NCBI GenBank assembly: GCA_963846545.1
Contig: CAWJWG010000001.1
Location: 2,630,515 to 2,694,514 of the forward strand
DNA: 64,000 bases
Reading direction: 5' to 3'
Source: an uncultured Gemmatimonadales bacterium
Lineage (GTDB): Bacteria; Gemmatimonadota; Gemmatimonadetes; Gemmatimonadales; GWC2-71-9
In this document: positions 11,421 through 22,802 of the stretch, piece after piece
Layout of the letters: each line of letters opens with the position of its first letter
Numbering within the stretch: the stretch's first letter is position 1
Translations under genes and position numbers: made by a program
Notes under the pieces: model-generated
Databases searched by the model: none
Seen by the model: only the letters and a program-made list of their open reading frames with translations
What the model was told of the DNA's origin: nothing

Positions 11421-11449
11421 TTGACGAACTCTTGTAGCTCGAGCATAAT
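11421..11449 (+). promoter_or_regulatory. Sigma70-type promoter of BTAD-STAND regulator
   Basis: TTGACG-17 bp-CATAAT, 28 nt upstream of ATG 11478. Confidence 0.65.
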
Positions 11450-11477
11450 CTCGGAGTACCTTGCTCCGAGGTCCTCC

Positions 11478-14400
11478 ATGGACGGCCGCCCCTACCTGAA
11501 ATGCCTCGGTCAACCTGCCTTATTCTCTCCGGCTGGTGAACCCATTCGGATCCGAACCAAGAAGCATCTTGCCCTTCTCGTCTATCTATTCGTCGAAGGC
11601 CGACGAAGCCATCGACGTGATAGACTGGCCGAGTTGTTCTGGCCGGACGTACCCTCTCCCCAAGCTCGCCACTCGTTAGCGACAGCCCTATCGATTCTTC
11701 GCCCGCGATTGGGTACCGGTGCGCTGTCGACAACTCGTGATCACGTCGTTGTTAACGAGAATTGTGTCAGCATGGACATAGATCGACTATTAGCTGGCGA
11801 TGTTGTCGGAACGGCGACGCGGGAAGCACTAGAGGTCACGGAGTTTCTTGAAGGATTCGAGATCCCTGATTCAGCTGAATTCGGCCTTTGGAAGGACCGA
11901 CAGAGGGCCAGGCTCCTTCCGGGTGTCAGAGCCGCGCTGGTACAGCTGATAGATGGGTGCCGGCGAACTGGTGACACTCGTCAAATAGAACACCTTGCAG
12001 ACATGATGCTAGCGCTGGATGAGCTTAGCGAGGAAGCAGTAAGGGCGAAAATGGAGGCTCGCGCATTTGCGGGAGATCGACTGACAGCACTACGGATCTT
12101 TGAGGAGTGGAAAGGGAAGCTTTCTGAAGCAGTTGGTGCTCAACCCTCCGAGCTAATTGAAGGTATGGCGGTCCGGCTTAGGCGCCGGGGATGGGAGCGG
12201 AGTGACCTAGCTGACATACCGACCGTTCGCACCGATCAATGGCGTGACCGATGTTTCATTGGTCGGTCTGTCGAATACCGAACTCTGTACGAGGCGTGGG
12301 AAAGAACAAAAAGGGGCAAGGCATCACACGTTTTGGTTCTAGGAGACTCGGGTGTAGGAAAATCGACTCTGGTAGACCGTCTCATCACGGCCGCTGGATT
12401 GGAGGGAGCTGCCTTTAGTCGGGCACAGTGTTACGACCTAGAGCAGGAGATACCCTACGCAACTCTTGGGAACCTGGTACGAGGGCTTTTAGATAGGCCT
12501 GGAGTCTCCGGCACGCCACCGGAAGCTCTAGCCGAAATTGCGCTTACGATACGAGACGTCCGACGACGGTTTCCCACCGTTCCTGTGGTCGAGGAGAGTC
12601 AAGGAGAGACAGCGCGGCTGAGGTTTACCGAAGCGATCTATCAGATGCTGGAGACCATCGCTGAGGAACACCCAGTCATACTGGTGATCGACGACTTGCA
12701 TTTGGTCGACGAGGCCAGTCTCTCGGTTCTCCATTTGATCGCACACCGGGTTCACAACCAGGCAATAATGCTTGTGCTCGTGGCACGGGAGGGCGAATTG
12801 CCCCGCTCGCAGCGGGCTGCACAGCTTCGTGGTAGTGCACAAACCATTGGTATACGGGAAATCGAACTGCCGCCGCTTTCGGACGAAGAGAGCGCAGAAC
12901 TCCTAGAAGCCCTCCTCAGTCCAGCCCGCCCAGGCGTGGACGCACCCTTGCGCCGGGCCATTATTCGAGCCGCGGGCGGGTTTCCCATGATCCTAGAGCT
13001 GCTGGTCCAGGACTGGGAAGCCAACGGCGATCGCTCCTTGGTGTTGGGCCTCGATGCCATGACGATAGACTTTGCCACTAGCGCAGAAGCACCCCCAGTG
13101 TACAAGCAAGTCTTCGAACGCCTAGCATTTGCCTTGGATCATGGTACGCGACATGTGCTGAACGTCGCCGCAGTATTGGGGCACCGCCTGAACGATCTAT
13201 CGCTATACTCAGTCGCCGATCTTGGCCAAGGTCAGGTCATGGCCGCCATGGCTGATCTTGTCCGCCATCGGGTGTTGCGGGATGGAGGGCGTGGCCTCGA
13301 GTTCGTAAACGAGTTTGTGCGAGCAGCCGCGTATCTAGGAGTACCTTCTCCGGTGCGGCGTGCCCTACACGCATCTGTGGCCGCGCATCTCATGGACGAA
13401 GAGCGGAGGGGAGTCCGCTTCCTCGGATTGGAAATTGCCTGGCATGCAACACGCGCAGGTCGGGTCGCTGAAGTCCCATCGTTTCTTCTCAAAGGGGCTC
13501 AGGAAGCGCTAGCGCAGGGTGCGCTCGACGCGGCTGGTCGGGCACTTGGAACCGCTCTAGGACAGCTGGCAAACGAGGATCGGTGCGCCGCGACCCTACT
13601 GCTAACCGAAGTGTTACAAGAGCAGGGCCGTTGGGGTGAATCAGCCAGAGTGTTGATGGACCAAGAGACCGCTCGGTCCTCCGCCATGGGAACGGTTCTC
13701 TTGATGTTAGCTGAACACCGGACGGCCGCCTCAACCGGAAACACTCTGATAGGTGCCGTACAACGATTGCTCGCAATAGTAGAAGCAGATTCCTCACAAC
13801 GTGTTCGCCTGAAGGCGGCGAACGCGGCGGCGCAACTGATGGGAGATGTACGCGACAGGGCACTCGCACGAGCGGTGCTCAGAGCGCTCGACAGCATGAG
13901 CCGCACTGATTTCACCGAGGACGAAGAATTCCAGTTAGGTCTTTGTCGTACTCAGCTACTGTACTATTCGGGAGAGCACCGAGCAGTCTTGGAAGCGCTG
14001 ACGGCACTCGCCACATCAATGAAGGCGCGCGGGGCCGCCAATTCGACTCTAGTCCGCGTTCACTCAGGCTTAGGCGTCATTCGTTGCTACGATGGCCAGT
14101 ATGACCTGGCCAACGCTGAGTTCTACGCTGCTCGCGCTATAGCAGTTCAGATAGGCAACGAAGCCCAACAGGTTACCTTGGCCGCGAATCTCGCCCTTTG
14201 TTGTCTTCGTCTTGGTAGGTATGACGAGCAGCTGGAGTGGAGCAGAAAGGCTTCAGGAGTGGGATTTTCGAGGTATCAGTGCCTGCAGGTCGCCTACAAC
14301 CAAGCCTTTGCCTTGGCAATGCGAGGGGAACCAAGAGCTGCCTGTGAGGCTTTTGCCAGCGTAGATCCGAATATCCCACCGGACAGCGCTCCTTGGCTCG

Positions 14401-14795
14401 TCCAAGCTTGGAAACTGCACCGCGCAGACATCCTTCGCCTTTGTGGTCAACAAGGCGCCGCAATGAGACAAGCCCGTGAAGCGATCGGCTGGCCAGAACC
14501 CGCGCTTCATGCACATTCGTTTGCGGGGGTCTTTGCTCGCTGGCTCGCGCTTGTCTCGAGGGAGGAAGGTGCGCTCGACCGGGCGCGCGTCATCCTAGAC
14601 GAGTTGGGGCACAGACCTAACGATTTTGATGCGGTCGATCGCGCGGAGATAGGATGCGCAAGATTGATCGTGTACCAGTCTCACAGATCTGAGGCTGAAC
14701 TAAGAGATCTGTTAGCGGAGAATTTGGCCGATTTGCCGTCTGCAGTCGTTACCCATCTCCATAGACTCGGAGTTCTTGAATTTCGTGATGCCTGA
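11478..14795 (+). CDS. SARP/AfsR-like regulator: wHTH-BTAD-AAA (STAND) ATPase-TPR-like
   Basis: RRDRLAELFWPD...ARHSL; BTAD LDELSEEA; Walker A GDSGVGKS; Walker B LVIDDLH. Confidence 0.9.
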   Translation: MDGRPYLKCLGQPALFSPAGEPIRIRTKKHLALLVYLFVEGRRSHRRDRLAELFWPDVPSPQARHSLATALSILRPRLGTGALSTTRDHVVVNENCVSMDIDRLLAGDVVGTATREALEVTEFLEGFEIPDSAEFGLWKDRQRARLLPGVRAALVQLIDGCRRTGDTRQIEHLADMMLALDELSEEAVRAKMEARAFAGDRLTALRIFEEWKGKLSEAVGAQPSELIEGMAVRLRRRGWERSDLADIPTVRTDQWRDRCFIGRSVEYRTLYEAWERTKRGKASHVLVLGDSGVGKSTLVDRLITAAGLEGAAFSRAQCYDLEQEIPYATLGNLVRGLLDRPGVSGTPPEALAEIALTIRDVRRRFPTVPVVEESQGETARLRFTEAIYQMLETIAEEHPVILVIDDLHLVDEASLSVLHLIAHRVHNQAIMLVLVAREGELPRSQRAAQLRGSAQTIGIREIELPPLSDEESAELLEALLSPARPGVDAPLRRAIIRAAGGFPMILELLVQDWEANGDRSLVLGLDAMTIDFATSAEAPPVYKQVFERLAFALDHGTRHVLNVAAVLGHRLNDLSLYSVADLGQGQVMAAMADLVRHRVLRDGGRGLEFVNEFVRAAAYLGVPSPVRRALHASVAAHLMDEERRGVRFLGLEIAWHATRAGRVAEVPSFLLKGAQEALAQGALDAAGRALGTALGQLANEDRCAATLLLTEVLQEQGRWGESARVLMDQETARSSAMGTVLLMLAEHRTAASTGNTLIGAVQRLLAIVEADSSQRVRLKAANAAAQLMGDVRDRALARAVLRALDSMSRTDFTEDEEFQLGLCRTQLLYYSGEHRAVLEALTALATSMKARGAANSTLVRVHSGLGVIRCYDGQYDLANAEFYAARAIAVQIGNEAQQVTLAANLALCCLRLGRYDEQLEWSRKASGVGFSRYQCLQVAYNQAFALAMRGEPRAACEAFASVDPNIPPDSAPWLVQAWKLHRADILRLCGQQGAAMRQAREAIGWPEPALHAHSFAGVFARWLALVSREEGALDRARVILDELGHRPNDFDAVDRAEIGCARLIVYQSHRSEAELRDLLAENLADLPSAVVTHLHRLGVLEFRDA

Positions 14796-14943: not shown

Positions 14944-16344
14944 CTAGCTCGCACCACCAGTCTTCCAAAGGCCCGCGACTGGCCAGTTCACCCGACGAGA
15001 CCTGGTCGGTGCGATGTCCCGCCGATCGAGGTCTGCAGTAGGGCCAACTATTAGGCGTCGTACGCCAACAGACGAAACCACCACATCGACTAGGTCGGTG
15101 TCAAACTGTGTTCCCTTGCACTTTTGAAGTTCGGCGATGACGACTTCTAGCGGGAGACGTTTTCGGTAAGGACGATCGGTTGTCATCGCATCGATCGTGT
15201 CGGATATGAGGATGATGCGTGATCCGAGCGGAATGCTCTTGCCGCTAAGGCCAGAAGGATACCCCTCACCATCCCACCGTTCATGGTGATGACGGACCGA
15301 CTCCTGAATAAACCCTCGAAATTTCGAAATGATTCCAACCAGTTCCGCACTTTTTGCGGAATGCGTCTGCATTAGAGCAGTTTCTTCCGGGGTAAGCCGC
15401 CCCTCCTTTCGCAACAATGGTGCGAACTCCTCGTGGATCTTACCGACGTCATGCAAGAGGGCCGCGGTCTCAATCTGCTCAACCTCCTTGGCGGGAAGGC
15501 CAAGCTCCACAGCGATCGTCCGCGAGAGCTCGCTAACTCGGACAGAATGGCCTGAAGTGTAGGGGTCGCGGGCCTCGATTGCCTTTACCATCACCTGCAG
15601 GAGTTCTTGCCCGCTGTCCTGCAATTGATGGTACAGCCCATAAATATGTCGGACGGCGATGATTGGAAGAATTATCCCGATGAGGCCAATAGAACCGAAG
15701 CCCAGCCACAGATCAAACCTCACGTACAGCCAAGCCACAAACACCGCGATAGCACTCGCCCCCAGATCGTAACCGAGTACCCCTCGGGTATTTAGGTTCC
15801 AAACTTCTCTGAGCGCGCGGTCGGAACTCAACGCGACTGCGGTGCTAACCGCAACGGAGTTGACGAGGAAGTACACGGTGGCGAAGAGCAGGAACAGCCC
15901 AAGGTCGCGCTGGACTGCTTCGGACGAGAGCGTTCCATTGGCGCTCAAGTAAGCCGGCGGAAGCTTCCCTCCTGCGACGAGATAAACAGACACAGCCAGG
16001 GAAATCGACAAGATCCGCTGGGAAACATTGAAGACAATCTTGAGCGGAGAGTTAGCGCGTGAAAGTTCCCCAAGGAAGGTGGATACGCCTGCGACCACGC
16101 TCGCCCAAAACCCTCCGAACAGCAAAGCAGCCGCAAGGTGCATGACGAACGACGTCGACCCCCTTGCTGCAACCCTCAGTCTGGTTGTGGTCAGTCCTTC
16201 TAGGAGGGTTGCGACAAGGAGGAAGGTGCCCAGGGGCCACCACCCTGGAAATTGCAAGCGAGAAAAGTACACGGTGTAGCCGGCGATTGCCGCTGCACCC
16301 GCCACCCCAAACACGAAACAATGGACTCTTGCTTCACGCGACAT
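14944..16344 (-). CDS. Membrane-bound HD-GYP cyclic-dinucleotide phosphodiesterase with multi-TM sensor domain
   Basis: About 7 hydrophobic segments, then ARDPYTSGHS, LLHDVGK, HHERWDGEGYP, DAMTTDRPY. Confidence 0.92.
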   Translation of the reverse strand: MSREARVHCFVFGVAGAAAIAGYTVYFSRLQFPGWWPLGTFLLVATLLEGLTTTRLRVAARGSTSFVMHLAAALLFGGFWASVVAGVSTFLGELSRANSPLKIVFNVSQRILSISLAVSVYLVAGGKLPPAYLSANGTLSSEAVQRDLGLFLLFATVYFLVNSVAVSTAVALSSDRALREVWNLNTRGVLGYDLGASAIAVFVAWLYVRFDLWLGFGSIGLIGIILPIIAVRHIYGLYHQLQDSGQELLQVMVKAIEARDPYTSGHSVRVSELSRTIAVELGLPAKEVEQIETAALLHDVGKIHEEFAPLLRKEGRLTPEETALMQTHSAKSAELVGIISKFRGFIQESVRHHHERWDGEGYPSGLSGKSIPLGSRIILISDTIDAMTTDRPYRKRLPLEVVIAELQKCKGTQFDTDLVDVVVSSVGVRRLIVGPTADLDRRDIAPTRSRRVNWPVAGLWKTGGAS

Positions 16345-16385
16345 AGGGCTTTGCAAGCTAAGGGATCCCGATCCCCACCGTCAGA

Positions 16386-16469
16386 CTAGTGCCAAGTCTG
16401 CCCTTCGCCCTTACCAAACAGACCGGCGAGTGCGTTGGCAAAAGTCGCGAGCCAGCTGATCTTCAACAT
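16386..16469 (-). CDS. 27-aa peptide MLKISWLATFANALAGLFGKGEGQTWH
   Basis: Manual translation; ATG preceded by GGGGGTG SD-like sequence; ends 41 nt before HD-GYP start; below ORF-track cutoff. Confidence 0.65.
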   Translation of the reverse strand: MLKISWLATFANALAGLFGKGEGQTWH

Positions 16470-16761
16470 GAGCGTCACCCCCCAGAGAGAAATGCATTAA
16501 ATCGGGAAGTGGCAAGCCTCGCTATGGCCGCCAGACGCTCCGCTCAATCAGTTTTTTCGCTAGTCTCCGCTGTGCTCGTTTGTCCTGCACCTACAGAGAC
16601 CGGGATCCCCTAACCTTGTGTCCTTTCACCGTGAGTTGGCCTGCCGGCGCCGGCCTGGCGCCCCACCGAGAATCGTCCTCCGAAAGAAGCGGTGAGCGCA
16701 CCCAGGGTGCGCCCAGAAGTCTGATCTTAGAATTGGCTCCGAAAACCGGGACCCGGAAGGG

Positions 16762-17532
16762 TCACCCCGGCCGCCGGGCCTCGGTCCACCGGTTGGTCGC
16801 GTCCAGCACGGCGAACACCGCCGCCCGCTCCGCGCTCTCCCGGATCTCCGCCGAGCCGGTCAGGAGCGACGTCTCCCGCCCGCCCAGCCCCTGCACCGCC
16901 ACGAAGGCGAACTCGCGGTCGAAGGCGTCGATGATCTTGGCGCCCTCGAGCGCGATCGAGAAATCGGTCAGCAGGCGGTCGATCACCACCACCGACGCCT
17001 TGGCCGCACCCTCCACCCGGCTCCGCGGCGTGTCCGACGCCTCCTCCTCCGCCGTCTCCGATTGCCCCCGGTACGACAGGGTCACGGTGATGGCGATGCG
17101 GTGCGGCCGCTTGCCCGGCGCCACCGACATGGTCTCGAACAGGATGGCCCGCTGCAGCAGCCGGTCGCGCACCGCGTCCCGCTCCAGCAGCTCGATCGGC
17201 CGCACCTCGGCCGTCTGCGCGATGCTGATCTTCCGGTGGTCCACCTTGAGCCCGAGCTGCGCCAGCAGCGCCGACTCGATGTTCCGCACCAGCTGCTTGG
17301 GCTGGAGCCCGGCGTTGGCCAGGATGTGGACCTCGGTCACCTCGCCCAGCGGCGAGGTCACCACCCGCGCCGAGAGGATGCCCTCGAGGCTGGTCAGCAG
17401 GTTCTCCGCCCGCCTGACGCCCCAGGGATCCGGTATCGCCTCCACCGCCCCGCTGCTCCGCGGGGCCTGACCCGGCAGCGGCGCCTGGCTCACGTTCACT
17501 GGTCCACTCGGTCTTGGACTGAATCCCGTCAC
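16762..17532 (-). CDS. Conserved hypothetical cytoplasmic protein
   Basis: GC-rich codon usage; motif EVHILA...PKQLVRNIESAL...VDHRKISIAQ and C-terminal AVLDATNR. Confidence 0.8.
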   Translation of the reverse strand: MTGFSPRPSGPVNVSQAPLPGQAPRSSGAVEAIPDPWGVRRAENLLTSLEGILSARVVTSPLGEVTEVHILANAGLQPKQLVRNIESALLAQLGLKVDHRKISIAQTAEVRPIELLERDAVRDRLLQRAILFETMSVAPGKRPHRIAITVTLSYRGQSETAEEEASDTPRSRVEGAAKASVVVIDRLLTDFSIALEGAKIIDAFDREFAFVAVQGLGGRETSLLTGSAEIRESAERAAVFAVLDATNRWTEARRPG

Positions 17533-17584
17533 ATCCTACCCCTCTTCCCGGTCTTATCGTTCATGGGCGAAGGAGGTCGCCCTG

Positions 17585-19274
17585 TCACGCCACCGCGTTG
17601 CGTCCGGCCGCCTTCGCGCGGTACAGCGCGCGGTCGGCCGACACCAGCAGGTCCACCTCGGCCGGCTGCCGACGGATCGAACTCCGCCAGGCCGATGCTC
17701 ACCGTCACCATCCCCTGCGGGTAGCCGAGCCGGCGCCCGGTGCCCTCGATCCCCGCCCGGAGCGCCTCCGCCACGCGGACGGCGCCCTGGAGATCGGTGC
17801 GGGTGAGGATCACCACGAATTCGTCGCCGCCGTACCGGGCCGCCACGTCGGAGGCGCGGACCGCGTTCCGGATCTCACCCGCCACGGCGCGGAGAATGTC
17901 GTTCGCCGCCTCGTGGCCGAACTGGTCGTTCACCTCTTTGAACCGGTCGAGGTCGAGGAACAGCACCGCGAAGCCCTCGTTGCTGCGCTTGCTCCGCTCC
18001 ACCTCGAACGCCAACTGGTCCCTGAGCACCCGATAGGTGCTGAGCCCGGTCATCGTGTCCACCGCCGCCGCCCGCTGGGCCTCGTCCGCCCGGCGCTCCT
18101 GGTAGGGCGTGCACTGCCGCATGCTGGCCCGGCCCAGCGCCGCCGCCTCGGCGAACCGCTGGCAGGTCTCGAAGCCGCACGCCCGGCAGTCCCACGGGCG
18201 CCCGTTCGGGCCCTTGCCGATCTGGTCCAGGACGGCGGCCACCGCCGCCGGGTCGGGCTTCATCCGGCGGGGCTTGATGGCGAAGGTGGCGCCGATGCTC
18301 GCCACCACCGCCGCATCCACCACCGGGAACCGGCTCCGCGGCGGCTCGGTGCTCGCCACCAGCTCGCGGCGCCAGTACAGCTCCTCGTGCGGCCCTGAAA
18401 GCGGGTGGTCCAGCGCCCCCTCCGTCGACAGGATATCCACGAAGCCGAGGTCCATCCGGTCCACCGCCACCGCCCGGGCCAGCGCCCGGAGCGCGTCGAG
18501 CCCCCGGATCTTCCGGAACCGCCGGCTGGAGTAGCGCGACTCGTCCAGCAGGGCCAGCGGGAGACCCCCCGCCGTGCTCAGGTGCCGCCGCCGCTCCTCC
18601 GGCACCCGCTCGAAGAAGCTGGGCTGGGCCGCCAGGTTCACCCCGCGGATCCGGAAGATCTGCTCCAGGTCGCCGAAGGTGATCGCCGCGTCCAGGTCGC
18701 CGCTGTCGGCCGGGGGACAGATCCCCGCGTACGCGATGCGCAATCCGGTGCGGTAGAGCGCTCGCAGATATCGCGCCTCGGCCACCGCCGGCAGCGTCAC
18801 CGGCGCCAGGTACGGCACCAGCTCCGGGTACTGGCTCCTCACCGTCTCCACCACGACCGGGTCGGTGGACCGGATCATGGTGCCCCAGGGCTCTTCTTCC
18901 AGCAGTTTAAGATATTCCGCGGCAACGAGTTCGTCGCCTATGACGCCGCGGGTGACCGCCCGGAAGCCGGCGGCGTAGCAGGCGTTGATCAACTGTTCCG
19001 GCGTGGCCGGATAAAAATGGGCGACCGACTCCGGGCTCAGGATCAGGATCCCATCGCCCTGCGAGGCAATGGCGAGAGCCTTGCCGATTTCGCCATTTAC
19101 CTTGACCGCGCCGTGGGGGCACGCCGGCAGACACTGGCCGCAGCGGATGCAGGCCTCGTCCACCACCTGCAGCAGCAGCGGCTCGTCGCCCGCGACGGCA
19201 ATGGCGTCGGTGGGGCACACGCGCACGCATGCCAAGCAGGCGACACAGAGCTCGGCGTCGATCGCGAAATTCAA
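17585..19274 (-). CDS. Diguanylate cyclase with 2[4Fe-4S] ferredoxin, [FeFe]-hydrogenase-like and FeS domains; +1 frameshift near 17670
   Basis: CVACLACVRVCP, CIRCGQCLPACP, DCRACGFETC; RYGGDEF; corrected C-terminus ADRALYRAKAAGRNAVA-stop. Confidence 0.85.
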
Positions 19275-19413: not shown

Positions 19414-20913
<1,500 letters not shown>

Positions 20914-20948: not shown

Positions 20949-22802
20949 GTGACCCGCGATGTTCAGGAGCAGCTGCAGCGATCGCTGGGAGACGCCTACC
21001 GCATCGAGCGGGAGCTCGGTGGCGGGGGGATGTCGCGCGTCTTCGTGGCGCTGGAGACGGCGCTGCAGCGGAAGGTCGTGGTGAAGGTGCTCCTGCCCGA
21101 GCTGGCGGCGGGGGTGAGCGTCGAGCGCTTCCGCCGCGAGATCTACCTCGCGGCCCAGCTGCAGCATCCGCACATCGTGCCATTGCTCTCCGCCGGCGAG
21201 TCGGAGGGCCTCCCCTATTTCACCATGCCGTACGTGGACGGCGAGTCGCTCCGGGCCCGGCTGCTGCGGGAGCGGGAGCTGCCGGTGGCGGCGGCGGTGC
21301 GCCTGCTCCGCGACGTCGCCGCCGCGCTGGCCTACGCCCACGAGCGCGGCGTGGTGCACCGGGACATCAAGCCCGATAACGTGCTGCTCTCGCGCGGCAT
21401 CGCGGTGGTGACCGACTTCGGGGTGGCCAAGGCGCTCACCGTGTCCAGCGAGTACGAATCCCAGCGGACCTCCCCCGGCCTCACCTCGCTCGGCGTCACC
21501 CTCGGCACGCCGCACTACATGGCCCCGGAGCAGGGCACCGGGGATCCGGCGATGGACCACCGGGTGGACATCTACGCCTTCGGCGCCACCGCGTACGAGA
21601 TCCTGAGCGGCGACCCGCCGTTCACCGGGAAATCGCCCCACGCGATCCTCGGCGCCCACCTCGCCGGCATCGCCAAGCCGATCGCCTCGCTCCGGCCGGG
21701 TCTGCCGCCGCTGCTCGCCCACGTGATCATGCAGTGCCTGGAGAAGCGCCCCGCCGACCGGCCGCAGAGCGCGGACGAGATCATTCGGGTGCTCGACTCG
21801 CTCGCCACGCCGACCGGCGGGACGGTGCCGCTCCCGATGCCGCGCACCCAGGTCCTCAAGGCTCGGGGCGCAGGGGTGCGGCGGTTCGTCCTCCCCGTGG
21901 CGGTCGCGGCCCTCGCGACTGCGGTGGCGATCTTCGCATGGCCCCGGGGAGGGGCGGCGCCCGATCGGACCGAGTCGGTGGCCGAGTCCACCGCCGCTCC
22001 GCCCAAGCCCGAGCCGGCCGTGCCGCCCGCGGCGGTGCCCGCGCCGCCGGCTGGGCCGGCGTCACTCGACACCTTCAGGGCGGAGACCACGCGCGCGCCG
22101 GCGCGGGCGCGCGCCCCCGCCCCCGCCCCCGCGGCCGAGGCGCCGAGCGCGGAGGACCTGGCGCTGCTGGGCCGGCTCCGCGCCGAGGCGGCGGGCGCGC
22201 GCGAGCGCGCCGTGGCCGCGGGCGCGGGCGACTCGATCCTCGCGCGGGGCGACTCCGCGCTCGAGCGCGCGGCGGCCCTCGCGCGCCGGCGGCGGACCGC
22301 GGAAGCGGCGGCGCAGCTCTCGAGGGCGGCGACACAGTGGTCGGCGGCGGCGGCCCGCGCGGCGGTGACCCCGCCCGCACCTCCCGACACCGCGGGATTG
22401 CCGACCACCCAGCCGGCGGCGCGTCCCCGCCCCACCGCCCCGGTCCCTCCGGCTCCGCCCGCGCCGGTCACGCCGCCGGCCGAGCCGCAGATCCGGGCGC
22501 TCTTCACCGAGTACGGCGCCGCGATCGAGTCGCGCAGCGTGGACGCGATCCGGCTGGTCTATCCCGATCTCCCCCAGGAGAAGGCGCGCGAATGGCAGGA
22601 GTTTTTCCGGGGCGTGAGCGACGTGCAGGTGGAGCTGGAGGTCACCGAGCTGCGGGTAGCCGGCGACGCCGCGGACGCGCGGCTCTCGGGGGTCTACGTC
22701 TTCAACAACCCGAGCACGCGGAAGGTGCAGCGGGAGCCGGTCTCGTTCCAGGCGTCGCTGGAGCGGAGCGGCGGGCGCTGGCGGATCGCCTCGCTGAAGT
22801 GA
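20949..22802 (+). CDS. Hanks-type Ser/Thr kinase with TM helix, Pro/Ala linker and SnoaL/NTF2-like C-terminal domain
   Basis: LGGGGMS, VVVK, HRDIKPDN, DFG, YMAPE. Confidence 0.92.
   Translation: MTRDVQEQLQRSLGDAYRIERELGGGGMSRVFVALETALQRKVVVKVLLPELAAGVSVERFRREIYLAAQLQHPHIVPLLSAGESEGLPYFTMPYVDGESLRARLLRERELPVAAAVRLLRDVAAALAYAHERGVVHRDIKPDNVLLSRGIAVVTDFGVAKALTVSSEYESQRTSPGLTSLGVTLGTPHYMAPEQGTGDPAMDHRVDIYAFGATAYEILSGDPPFTGKSPHAILGAHLAGIAKPIASLRPGLPPLLAHVIMQCLEKRPADRPQSADEIIRVLDSLATPTGGTVPLPMPRTQVLKARGAGVRRFVLPVAVAALATAVAIFAWPRGGAAPDRTESVAESTAAPPKPEPAVPPAAVPAPPAGPASLDTFRAETTRAPARARAPAPAPAAEAPSAEDLALLGRLRAEAAGARERAVAAGAGDSILARGDSALERAAALARRRRTAEAAAQLSRAATQWSAAAARAAVTPPAPPDTAGLPTTQPAARPRPTAPVPPAPPAPVTPPAEPQIRALFTEYGAAIESRSVDAIRLVYPDLPQEKAREWQEFFRGVSDVQVELEVTELRVAGDAADARLSGVYVFNNPSTRKVQREPVSFQASLERSGGRWRIASLK

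Follow-up and report, generated by a model that had tools for sequence, protein, structure and literature searches.

Does a short open reading frame (ORF) in front of a membrane phosphodiesterase gene encode a functional peptide, and, if so, what might that peptide do for the enzyme encoded next to it? This question is raised by a 64,000-nucleotide stretch of the genome of an uncultured Gemmatimonadales bacterium (assembly GCA_963846545.1, contig CAWJWG010000001.1, positions 2,630,515 to 2,694,514), hereafter called the window. Here, an unannotated ORF of 27 codons lies between a gene for a conserved hypothetical protein of 256 amino acids (P256) and a gene for a membrane protein with MASE9 and HD-GYP domains, and all three are co-oriented on the minus strand (Table 1). 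The original prediction, made from the sequence of the window, had described this ORF and its Shine-Dalgarno (SD)-like sequence, and its coordinates and the shared orientation of the three genes were found as described; the SD-like sequence is a GGGGGG run. MASE9 is an orphan membrane sensor of which one member has been studied, and that poorly (10.1101/2021.11.05.467447). The sequence evidence suggests that the small ORF encodes a candidate partner of this domain that has gone unnoticed until now.

The 470-aa membrane protein matches the MASE9 profile over residues 68-233 with 44.6 bits (Pfam PF20972, cut-off 24.3) and the HD_5 profile with 121.2 bits, and its translation contains the motifs HDVGK and GEGYP. 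It is a MASE9–HD-GYP protein and, by sequence, a cyclic di-GMP (c-di-GMP) phosphodiesterase. The longest frame (14944..16356, 470 aa) begins with a TTG at 16356, but the ATG at 16344 is the likely start (MSREARVH, with MSRxxR kept in relatives). This ATG lies 41 nt from the stop codon of the small ORF and is preceded by no SD-like run in the window sequence. The MASE9/HD-GYP frame is broken, either into two tblastn pieces or by an internal stop, in four metagenome-assembled loci (L025 of genome G014, L018, L019, and L136), which may reflect assembly errors or pseudogenes.

We hold with high confidence that the small ORF is a true coding gene linked to MASE9. In the ORF list, it appears as a minus-strand frame at 16386..16478 with a GTG start (30 aa), within which an ATG at 16469 gives the peptide MLKISWLATFANALAGLFGKGEGQTWH; the stop codon is a TAG at 16386-16388. 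The alternative GTG at 16478 abuts the GGGGGG run and is unlikely to be the real start. Searches by tblastn with the window peptide matched five relatives, and a hydrophobic ORF on the same strand is present in the intergenic DNA of nearly every Gemmatimonadales locus. The encoded peptides take the form ML(K)…LFG.(S/G)EGQxWx in group f1 and FDFGWFAAII…GGDVSW in group f3, and are shorter in group f2, where they end in …NWG, …TWD, or …GWA. The 14 f1 ORFs are 24-29 aa long, their frames are all intact, and their indels preserve the frame. The pooled ratio of non-synonymous to synonymous changes (pN/pS) of these 14 ORFs was 0.53 in frame versus 0.89 and 1.18 in the shifted frames; the in-frame values were 0.36 both in Deinococcota (18 unique sequences) and in Thermotogota (14 unique sequences), with 0.86-2.08 in shifted frames. 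Such patterns of substitution indicate in-frame purifying selection on the small ORF. Its positional conservation, in-frame selection, and recurrence with MASE9, together with nearly empty controls (see below), argue that it is not a chance ORF.

Across an alignment of 71 peptides, a single column is invariant, the Trp near the C-terminus, an invariance that is partly by construction for the rows chosen by a Trp-requiring rule. The peptides matched no Pfam or NCBIfam family, giving only sub-threshold noise. The exact sequences of 4 of 10 peptides were present in a collection of 15 billion proteins, where one of the four bears a name (‘hypothetical protein’), and the ESM Atlas returned unnamed clusters of 29-30 aa at 0.89, which serve as a lead only. 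One metatranscriptome run contains 5% of the sequence words of the window. Short contigs from this run (three at ≥99%, 18 at 95-99%, and 32 at 90-95% identity) fall on the leader core (e.g. 16455-16528) and on P256; contigs can neither rank genes nor prove transcription, and the parts that they leave uncovered carry no meaning.

The peptide gene is not confined to Gemmatimonadales. The first sets of loci, found with the HD-GYP protein of the window, contained similar ORFs in Bacillota, Actinomycetota, Thermus, and Pseudothermotoga. A search with PF20972 detected MASE9 in 36 of 81 Deinococcota genomes and 36 of 81 Thermotogota genomes; Thermus thermophilus and Thermotoga maritima, used as controls, each have the domain. 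A first filter, which used length and hydrophobicity only and did not ask for Trp, found ORFs of the type MKMKKLIAKVLALLGSLVALGLAAGASxxWx at 29 of 30 Deinococcota loci and of the type MKKLWKILLIAGSFLAMLISAVGNIEVW at 27 of 30 Thermotogota loci; every one of these ORFs (29/29 and 27/27) encodes the Trp. A fixed rule was then set, after the Gemmatimonadales, Deinococcota, Thermotogota, and remaining (‘others’) sets had been viewed: an ORF of 15-50 aa, with a Kyte–Doolittle value of ≥1.5 in a 13-residue window and Trp within the last eight residues. Under this rule, the positional conservation on which the original prediction had staked itself was present, with an ORF on the sense strand at 82 of 95 loci versus 1 of 95 on the reverse strand (Gemmatimonadales, 17/25; others, 8/10; Deinococcota, 29/30; and Thermotogota, 28/30). 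The rule misses four loci (L037, L043, L177, and L178) at which the peptide is present by eye; by eye, Thermotogota reach 30/30 and Gemmatimonadales exceed 17/25.

Two further phyla were tested out of sample. Bacillota gave 17/29 on the sense strand versus 0/29 on the reverse strand (consensus …LILAGGAxF(K/R)W), two or three of the Bacillota loci in the ‘others’ set being from the same genomes as this test (L048 = L119, and the peptide of L058 is that of L223). Actinomycetota gave 10/28 on the sense strand and three further family-like ORFs on the divergent strand; the genome tally behind this test takes in four unpublished genomes, which contributed no locus. At two Actinomycetota loci, L121 (997-1333) and L215 (1185-1369), tandem copies of the peptide gene stand before one MASE9 gene, those of L215 being identical. 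These tandem and divergent copies indicate that the peptide is encoded by an independent gene. The sequences reveal an unannotated family of mini-proteins whose genes immediately precede MASE9 genes in five phyla: Gemmatimonadota, Deinococcota, Thermotogota, Bacillota, and Actinomycetota. The original prediction, which had placed short Trp-ended ORFs before MASE9-like HD-GYP genes in other phyla, was borne out in the latter four. In Deinococcota (e.g. L118, 1180-1295), the Thermus peptide gene is preceded, at a distance of ~40-110 nt, by a well-conserved promoter-like pair (TTGACA…TAAAGT) and a GC hairpin (CGGGGCC…CCCCCG), a layout that suggests a promoter of its own for the Thermus peptide–MASE9 pair.

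The small ORF tracks the MASE9 domain rather than HD-GYP, since only 4 of 48 control HD-GYP genes without MASE9 are accompanied by an ORF fitting the rule, and the products of two of these four have the architecture membrane–GGDEF–HD-GYP, one of them matching MASE9 below the cut-off (21.8 bits).

The family has a common layout, with a basic N-terminus, 15-20 hydrophobic residues, and a polar tail of 4-9 residues carrying the near-terminal Trp. Small residues in the hydrophobic part are spaced i, i+3 or i+4. The N-terminus and helix (pN/pS of 0.28-0.36) are more constrained than the last five codons in Deinococcota (0.62), and in Thermotogota the tail is constrained as well (0.29); no sign of diversifying selection on the tail was seen. 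The window peptide itself has the marks of a small membrane protein by sequence: 27 aa, one transmembrane (TM)-like helix according to the rule, and purifying selection. The co-folding that the original prediction had proposed was performed with MASE9 residues 1-246 (71-row alignment) and the 30-aa form of the peptide with its own alignment, the four loci with interrupted frames being left out of the alignments. The interface score (ipSAE) was 0.49, 0.50, and 0.54 versus 0.00 for the best of three controls, these controls being unrelated 30-mers rather than TM helices, so that a generic helix might score alike. Local confidence (pLDDT) for the partner did not fall below 64, and ≥95% of contacts were common to the runs. 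Of 80 solved complexes, 58 attain the mark used, as do 2 of 110 mismatched pairs; scores of ≤0.60 are found for only 7 of those 80 complexes, yet for both mismatches. The verdict for a modelled peptide–MASE9 contact is weak support.

Our preferred reading, to which we give an even chance, is that the peptide stays uncleaved in the membrane as a single-pass partner of MASE9 and modulates the hydrolysis of c-di-GMP. It would be made from the same structured leader and mRNA as the HD-GYP gene, insert into the membrane as one helix with the N-terminus inside, the C-terminus outside, and Trp at the outer membrane interface, and pack on the 8-TM bundle of MASE9, of which it would be a dedicated subunit or a regulator; this packing would set the hydrolysis of c-di-GMP by the HD-GYP domain. 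Ligand binding inside the membrane has been proposed by the authors who described MASE9 (10.1101/2021.11.05.467447). An uncleaved partner is favoured by this proposed site, the constrained helix, its small-residue face, and the weak co-fold support.

Several observations weigh against such a partner. Many MASE9 genes have no ORF fitting the rule (18/28 in Actinomycetota and 12/29 in Bacillota), so that the peptide is not a universal companion of the domain, and the rule itself was set with four of the sets in view. The co-fold score is only weak and was gauged against 30-mers of another kind. The hydrophobicity of the window peptide is no more than moderate and its N-terminus bears just one Lys, the tail is variable except for the Trp, and the peptides of Thermus, Bacillota, and Actinomycetota resemble textbook Sec signal peptides, which would fit cleavage.

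The last of these points leads to a second explanation, namely that the peptide is a pre-pheromone that, once exported, is cleaved by a site-2 protease or by signal peptidase. The last 4-12 residues, including the Trp, would thereby be released and would be read outside the cell by MASE9, forming a c-di-GMP-wired autoinducer loop that works like ComX–ComP, AgrD–AgrC, or SHP. The signal-peptide-like layout, with an A-x-A-like site (AGA, SGA, or AVG) located 4-5 residues from the C-terminus in four phyla (Deinococcota, Bacillota, Actinomycetota, and Thermotogota), is in its favour, as are the tandem gene copies, the adjacency of the peptide gene to a gene for a polytopic membrane receptor, and a tail that varies around an invariant Trp; in ComX pheromones, an invariant modified Trp lies near a variable C-terminus. 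No clear A-x-A site is present in the window peptide, however, and the conserved cassette contains no protease, prenyltransferase, or ABC exporter gene, while P256, the conserved neighbour, is predicted to fold into ferredoxin-like and LeuA-type regulatory domains. The pN/pS values of the tail are not above 1, and conservation is higher in the hydrophobic part than in the tail, a pattern unusual for a mere export signal. We consider a pre-pheromone less likely, if still a serious competitor, and the quorum-sensing ligand of the original prediction finds no support, given the lack of a processing or export enzyme in the cassette, the regulatory fold of P256, and a tail without diversifying selection.

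The DNA around the small ORF holds a second conserved element that the original prediction did not contain, a structured leader RNA enclosing the ORF. Invariant blocks were found upstream of the small ORF in an alignment of 18 f1 and f3 loci, in which RNAalifold placed a long-range helix (16597-16611 with 16362-16376) around the ORF; 10 of its 12 pairs show changes on both sides. A second helix is formed by GAGCGGAGCGUC (16534-16545) and GACGCUC (16470-16476), the latter abutting the ATG, and 5 of 7 pairs are compensatory in a hairpin at 16510-16533 with the loop AUAGCGA. The SD (GGGGGG, 16478-16483) is predicted to pair with an anti-SD, CUUCCC (16504-16509), and the column block GG.GACGC.C at the SD–ATG segment is invariant. 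The leader core contains five AGCG motifs (16567-16571, 16558-16561, within 16534-16545, 16520-16524). For the whole structure, 92.1% of cells are paired versus 83.5% in shuffles, none of 500 shuffles being as high; 15 pairs are changed on both sides versus 8.6 expected, and slid controls are 37-48% paired. The fold of the window's own leader agrees (z of -2.6). Searches of Rfam 15 gave no match at E ≤10 for 16357-16761 and, at gathering scores, only tRNAs and no leader family for the 18 related loci.

Copies of the short repeat AGCGRA lie within 200 nt upstream of the peptide start, on the sense strand only, with mean sense and antisense counts of 2.69 and 0.00 in Gemmatimonadales, 2.62 and 0.00 in Thermotogota, and 0.38 and 0.00 in Deinococcota. 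Bacillota leaders contain the same GAGCGGAGCG and a hairpin with a UAGCGGA loop, and the Bacillota loci with neither peptide nor P256 have none of the leader words. The covariance model of the leader (R1) is so specific to its clade that it cannot score the leaders of Bacillota or Thermotogota. It matches only this locus in the genome, on which ground a multi-copy motif or regulon was rejected; in two Thermotogota genomes, the triple AGCGRAG pattern likewise occurs only in the MASE9 leader. CsrA sites are unlikely, since many of the repeats are AGCGAAG without GGA.

In this genome, the leader RNA would gate translation of the peptide by pairing the SD together with the nucleotides that lead to the ATG. 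Peptide translation should also open the HD-GYP start, because the 3' arm of the long-range helix falls between the peptide stop and the HD-GYP start, which lacks an SD. These features invite a third explanation, that the ORF is a cis-acting upstream ORF whose translation remodels the leader and couples ribosomes to the HD-GYP start, the peptide itself being without a role. The placement of the ORF within a conserved, covarying helix, the paired SD, the lack of an SD at the HD-GYP start, and, in Deinococcota, Thermotogota, and the smaller set from other phyla, the distance of 4-119 nt from peptide stop to first candidate MASE9 start would suit such an arrangement; a codon run is absent. Nevertheless, purifying selection acts on the amino acids and the Trp is invariant across phyla with unrelated leaders, Thermus keeps the peptide without an AGCGRA-repeat leader, and no translational coupling is possible for those Actinomycetota copies that are in tandem or on the divergent strand. 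A purely cis-acting role is improbable on these grounds.

P256 is the third conserved part of the locus. Its family comprises 1536 representatives (E ≤0.001), matches no Pfam or NCBIfam family, and is represented in the ESM Atlas by unnamed Gemmatimonadota clusters. In the AlphaFold model (pLDDT 89), the N-terminus is disordered and the remainder forms two domains. Residues 33-108 are ferredoxin-like, with Z scores of 8-9 to the C-terminal domains of cation diffusion facilitator (CDF) transporters, such scores being common, and residues 128-251 resemble the regulatory domain of LeuA/citramalate synthase (Foldseek E of 9e-7; Z of 9.5 and root-mean-square deviation of 3.2 over 110 residues against the LiCMS regulatory domain). 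From the model, P256 looks like a small-molecule-binding regulator and not a processing enzyme.

The gene is adjacent to MASE9 at 24 of 25 Gemmatimonadales loci, 5 of 10 loci in the ‘others’ set, and 21 of 30 Bacillota loci, but at none of the 60 Deinococcota and Thermotogota loci. Among Bacillota loci, 16 have P256 and the peptide, one has the peptide only, five have P256 only, and seven have neither; in Actinomycetota, P256 adjoins MASE9 in one genome (G288) and is a divergent neighbour in another (G335). The P256–peptide–HD-GYP cassette of the original prediction therefore holds for Gemmatimonadales, Bacillota, and some Actinomycetota and fails for Thermus and Thermotoga, where P256 is dispensable, a point that the prediction had not foreseen. 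A P256 homologue is located elsewhere in the genome in three of four Thermotogota genomes, with unrelated neighbours (Jag/R3H, IspD, and DegT) that give no hint at function, and was not found in six Deinococcota genomes. At one such Thermotogota site (G162:C1:696979-697933; L183/L188), two adjacent P256-like ORFs of 204 and 165 aa lie beside a DegT-type aminotransferase gene, far from the MASE9 gene of that genome.

We take P256 to be a linked, optional regulator that would act in the cytoplasm. Clades with P256 have AGCGRA repeats, and Thermus has neither; as this co-occurrence covers just four clades, it no more than hints at a reading of the repeats by P256. A more ambitious combination, a pan-phylum quorum-sensing system in which an exported, trimmed Trp peptide is sensed within the membrane by MASE9 and P256 is a ligand-gated, TRAP/HutP-like reader of AGCGRA, strikes us as a long shot. 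Were it true, c-di-GMP-wired quorum sensing would be common to Thermus, Thermotoga, Bacillota, Actinomycetota, and Gemmatimonadota, with P256 controlling the synthesis of both peptide and enzyme.

That the small ORF is untranslated and conserved through the leader RNA alone is hardly credible, since, despite the strongly conserved structured RNA that overlaps its 5' end in Gemmatimonadales, RNAalifold placed no conserved pairs inside the ORF body, substitutions are frame-specific and indels frame-preserving, and the same type of peptide occurs in phyla without this RNA.

If the peptide is indeed a membrane partner of MASE9, it would be another example of second-messenger turnover under the control of a small protein. 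A deeply conserved mini-protein beside this domain is a concrete candidate for what MASE9 ‘senses’ or needs, and one that is testable in the tractable species Thermus thermophilus and Thermotoga maritima. The locus also reveals a widespread gene overlooked by annotation and links it to further new parts, an undescribed leader RNA motif and the P256 family with its 1536 clusters.

Table 1. Features of the peptide–MASE9 locus and its neighbours, in positions of the window
Feature	Position	Strand	Basis
Small ORF, 27 aa and stop	16386..16469	-	ORF list and sequence
MASE9–HD-GYP phosphodiesterase (predicted)	14944..16344	-	MASE9 and HD_5 profile matches
P256, 256-aa conserved hypothetical protein	16762..17532	-	no Pfam/NCBIfam family
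Shine-Dalgarno-like GGGGGG	16478..16483	-	8 nt before small-ORF ATG
Structured leader RNA enclosing the small ORF	16362..16611	-	RNAalifold, covariation counts
Leader core with AGCG motifs	16470..16572	-	invariant alignment columns
Terminator-like hairpin and U-rich tail after P256	16683..16715 (hairpin 16715..16693)	-	consensus scan
Fe-S/[FeFe]-hydrogenase-like sensor–GGDEF diguanylate cyclase	17529..19274	-	family search
BTAD–AAA_16–TPR STAND ATPase	11421..14795	+	convergent with HD-GYP gene

The order STAND, HD-GYP, small ORF, P256, GGDEF is kept in the genus, and the adjacency of HD-GYP and P256 is kept across the order Gemmatimonadales; the gene-order tally takes in one unpublished genome (G003), which contributed no locus. 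The STAND gene adjoins the HD-GYP gene across the genus, and 13 of 25 Gemmatimonadales loci show it within the DNA examined. P256 and the small-ORF gene are probably separate transcripts, split by the terminator-like hairpin, which comes from a weak consensus scan that found two sites versus 2.5 expected in shuffles. The GGDEF gene is located upstream of P256 throughout the genus, and its stop codon overlaps the P256 start by 4 nt. Its product is a diguanylate cyclase fused to a sensor module composed of 2x[4Fe-4S], [FeFe]-hydrogenase-large-subunit-like, and FeS parts, and may be a redox-sensing c-di-GMP synthase matched to the downstream phosphodiesterase.

The GC content is ~56% between ~11350 and ~16650 (STAND, HD-GYP, and leader) versus ~70% around this block. 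A recent genomic island under the cassette was considered and rejected, since gene order and the GC drop are common to all f1 relatives, in every one of which HD-GYP has a GC fraction of 0.52-0.65 versus 0.68-0.74 for P256; the low-GC block is old and not an island boundary. Farther out, the minus-strand gene at 19414-20913 presumably encodes a sigma-54-type enhancer-binding response regulator, as its translation has what we take to be a GAFTGA-like motif, and the plus-strand gene at 20949-22802 has the look of a Ser/Thr protein kinase by its translation.

Our literature searches found no description of a MASE9-linked small ORF, and the passages on MASE9 (PF20972) consulted in the preprint mention no small ORF, P256, or leader RNA; like TM1467 of T. 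maritima treated there, the window receptor is a bona fide MASE9–HD-GYP protein (10.1101/2021.11.05.467447). The leader of the window, with 3-5 strand-specific short repeats (AGCGRA) and a paired SD, is reminiscent of those read by RNA-binding proteins. Leaders of that kind carry GAG/UAG repeats for TRAP, UAG for HutP, and GGA sites for CsrA, and SD sequestration is also known from riboswitches. The leader described here differs from them in its repeat word, many copies being AGCGAAG without GGA, and has no Rfam match.

Among systems in which a peptide acts on a membrane protein, the peptide-pheromone cassettes with membrane receptors (AgrD–AgrC and ComX–ComP) and the SHP/XIP peptides are one point of comparison. 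As in AgrD–AgrC and ComX–ComP, a short precursor-like gene with a basic N-terminus and a hydrophobic core adjoins the gene for a polytopic receptor, and Trp is a key residue near a variable C-terminus. Unlike those cassettes, the MASE9 cassette contains no dedicated processing, modifying, or export gene, its output would be c-di-GMP hydrolysis rather than phosphorylation or transcription, and no diversifying selection is seen.

The other point of comparison is the small membrane proteins that serve as regulators (MgrB–PhoQ, SafA–PhoQ, and MzrA–EnvZ) or subunits (KdpF and CydX). Searches of Pfam and NCBIfam families revealed no sequence similarity of the MASE9-linked peptides to these proteins, but the likeness in kind is close: fewer than 50 aa, one hydrophobic helix, frequent absence from annotation, and a proposed packing of the helix on a polytopic membrane protein. 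The MASE9-linked peptide differs in that its candidate partner is the MASE9 sensor of a c-di-GMP phosphodiesterase instead of a histidine kinase or a transporter, and in that the pairing is conserved in five or more phyla and not confined to a single lineage, with an invariant near-terminal Trp.

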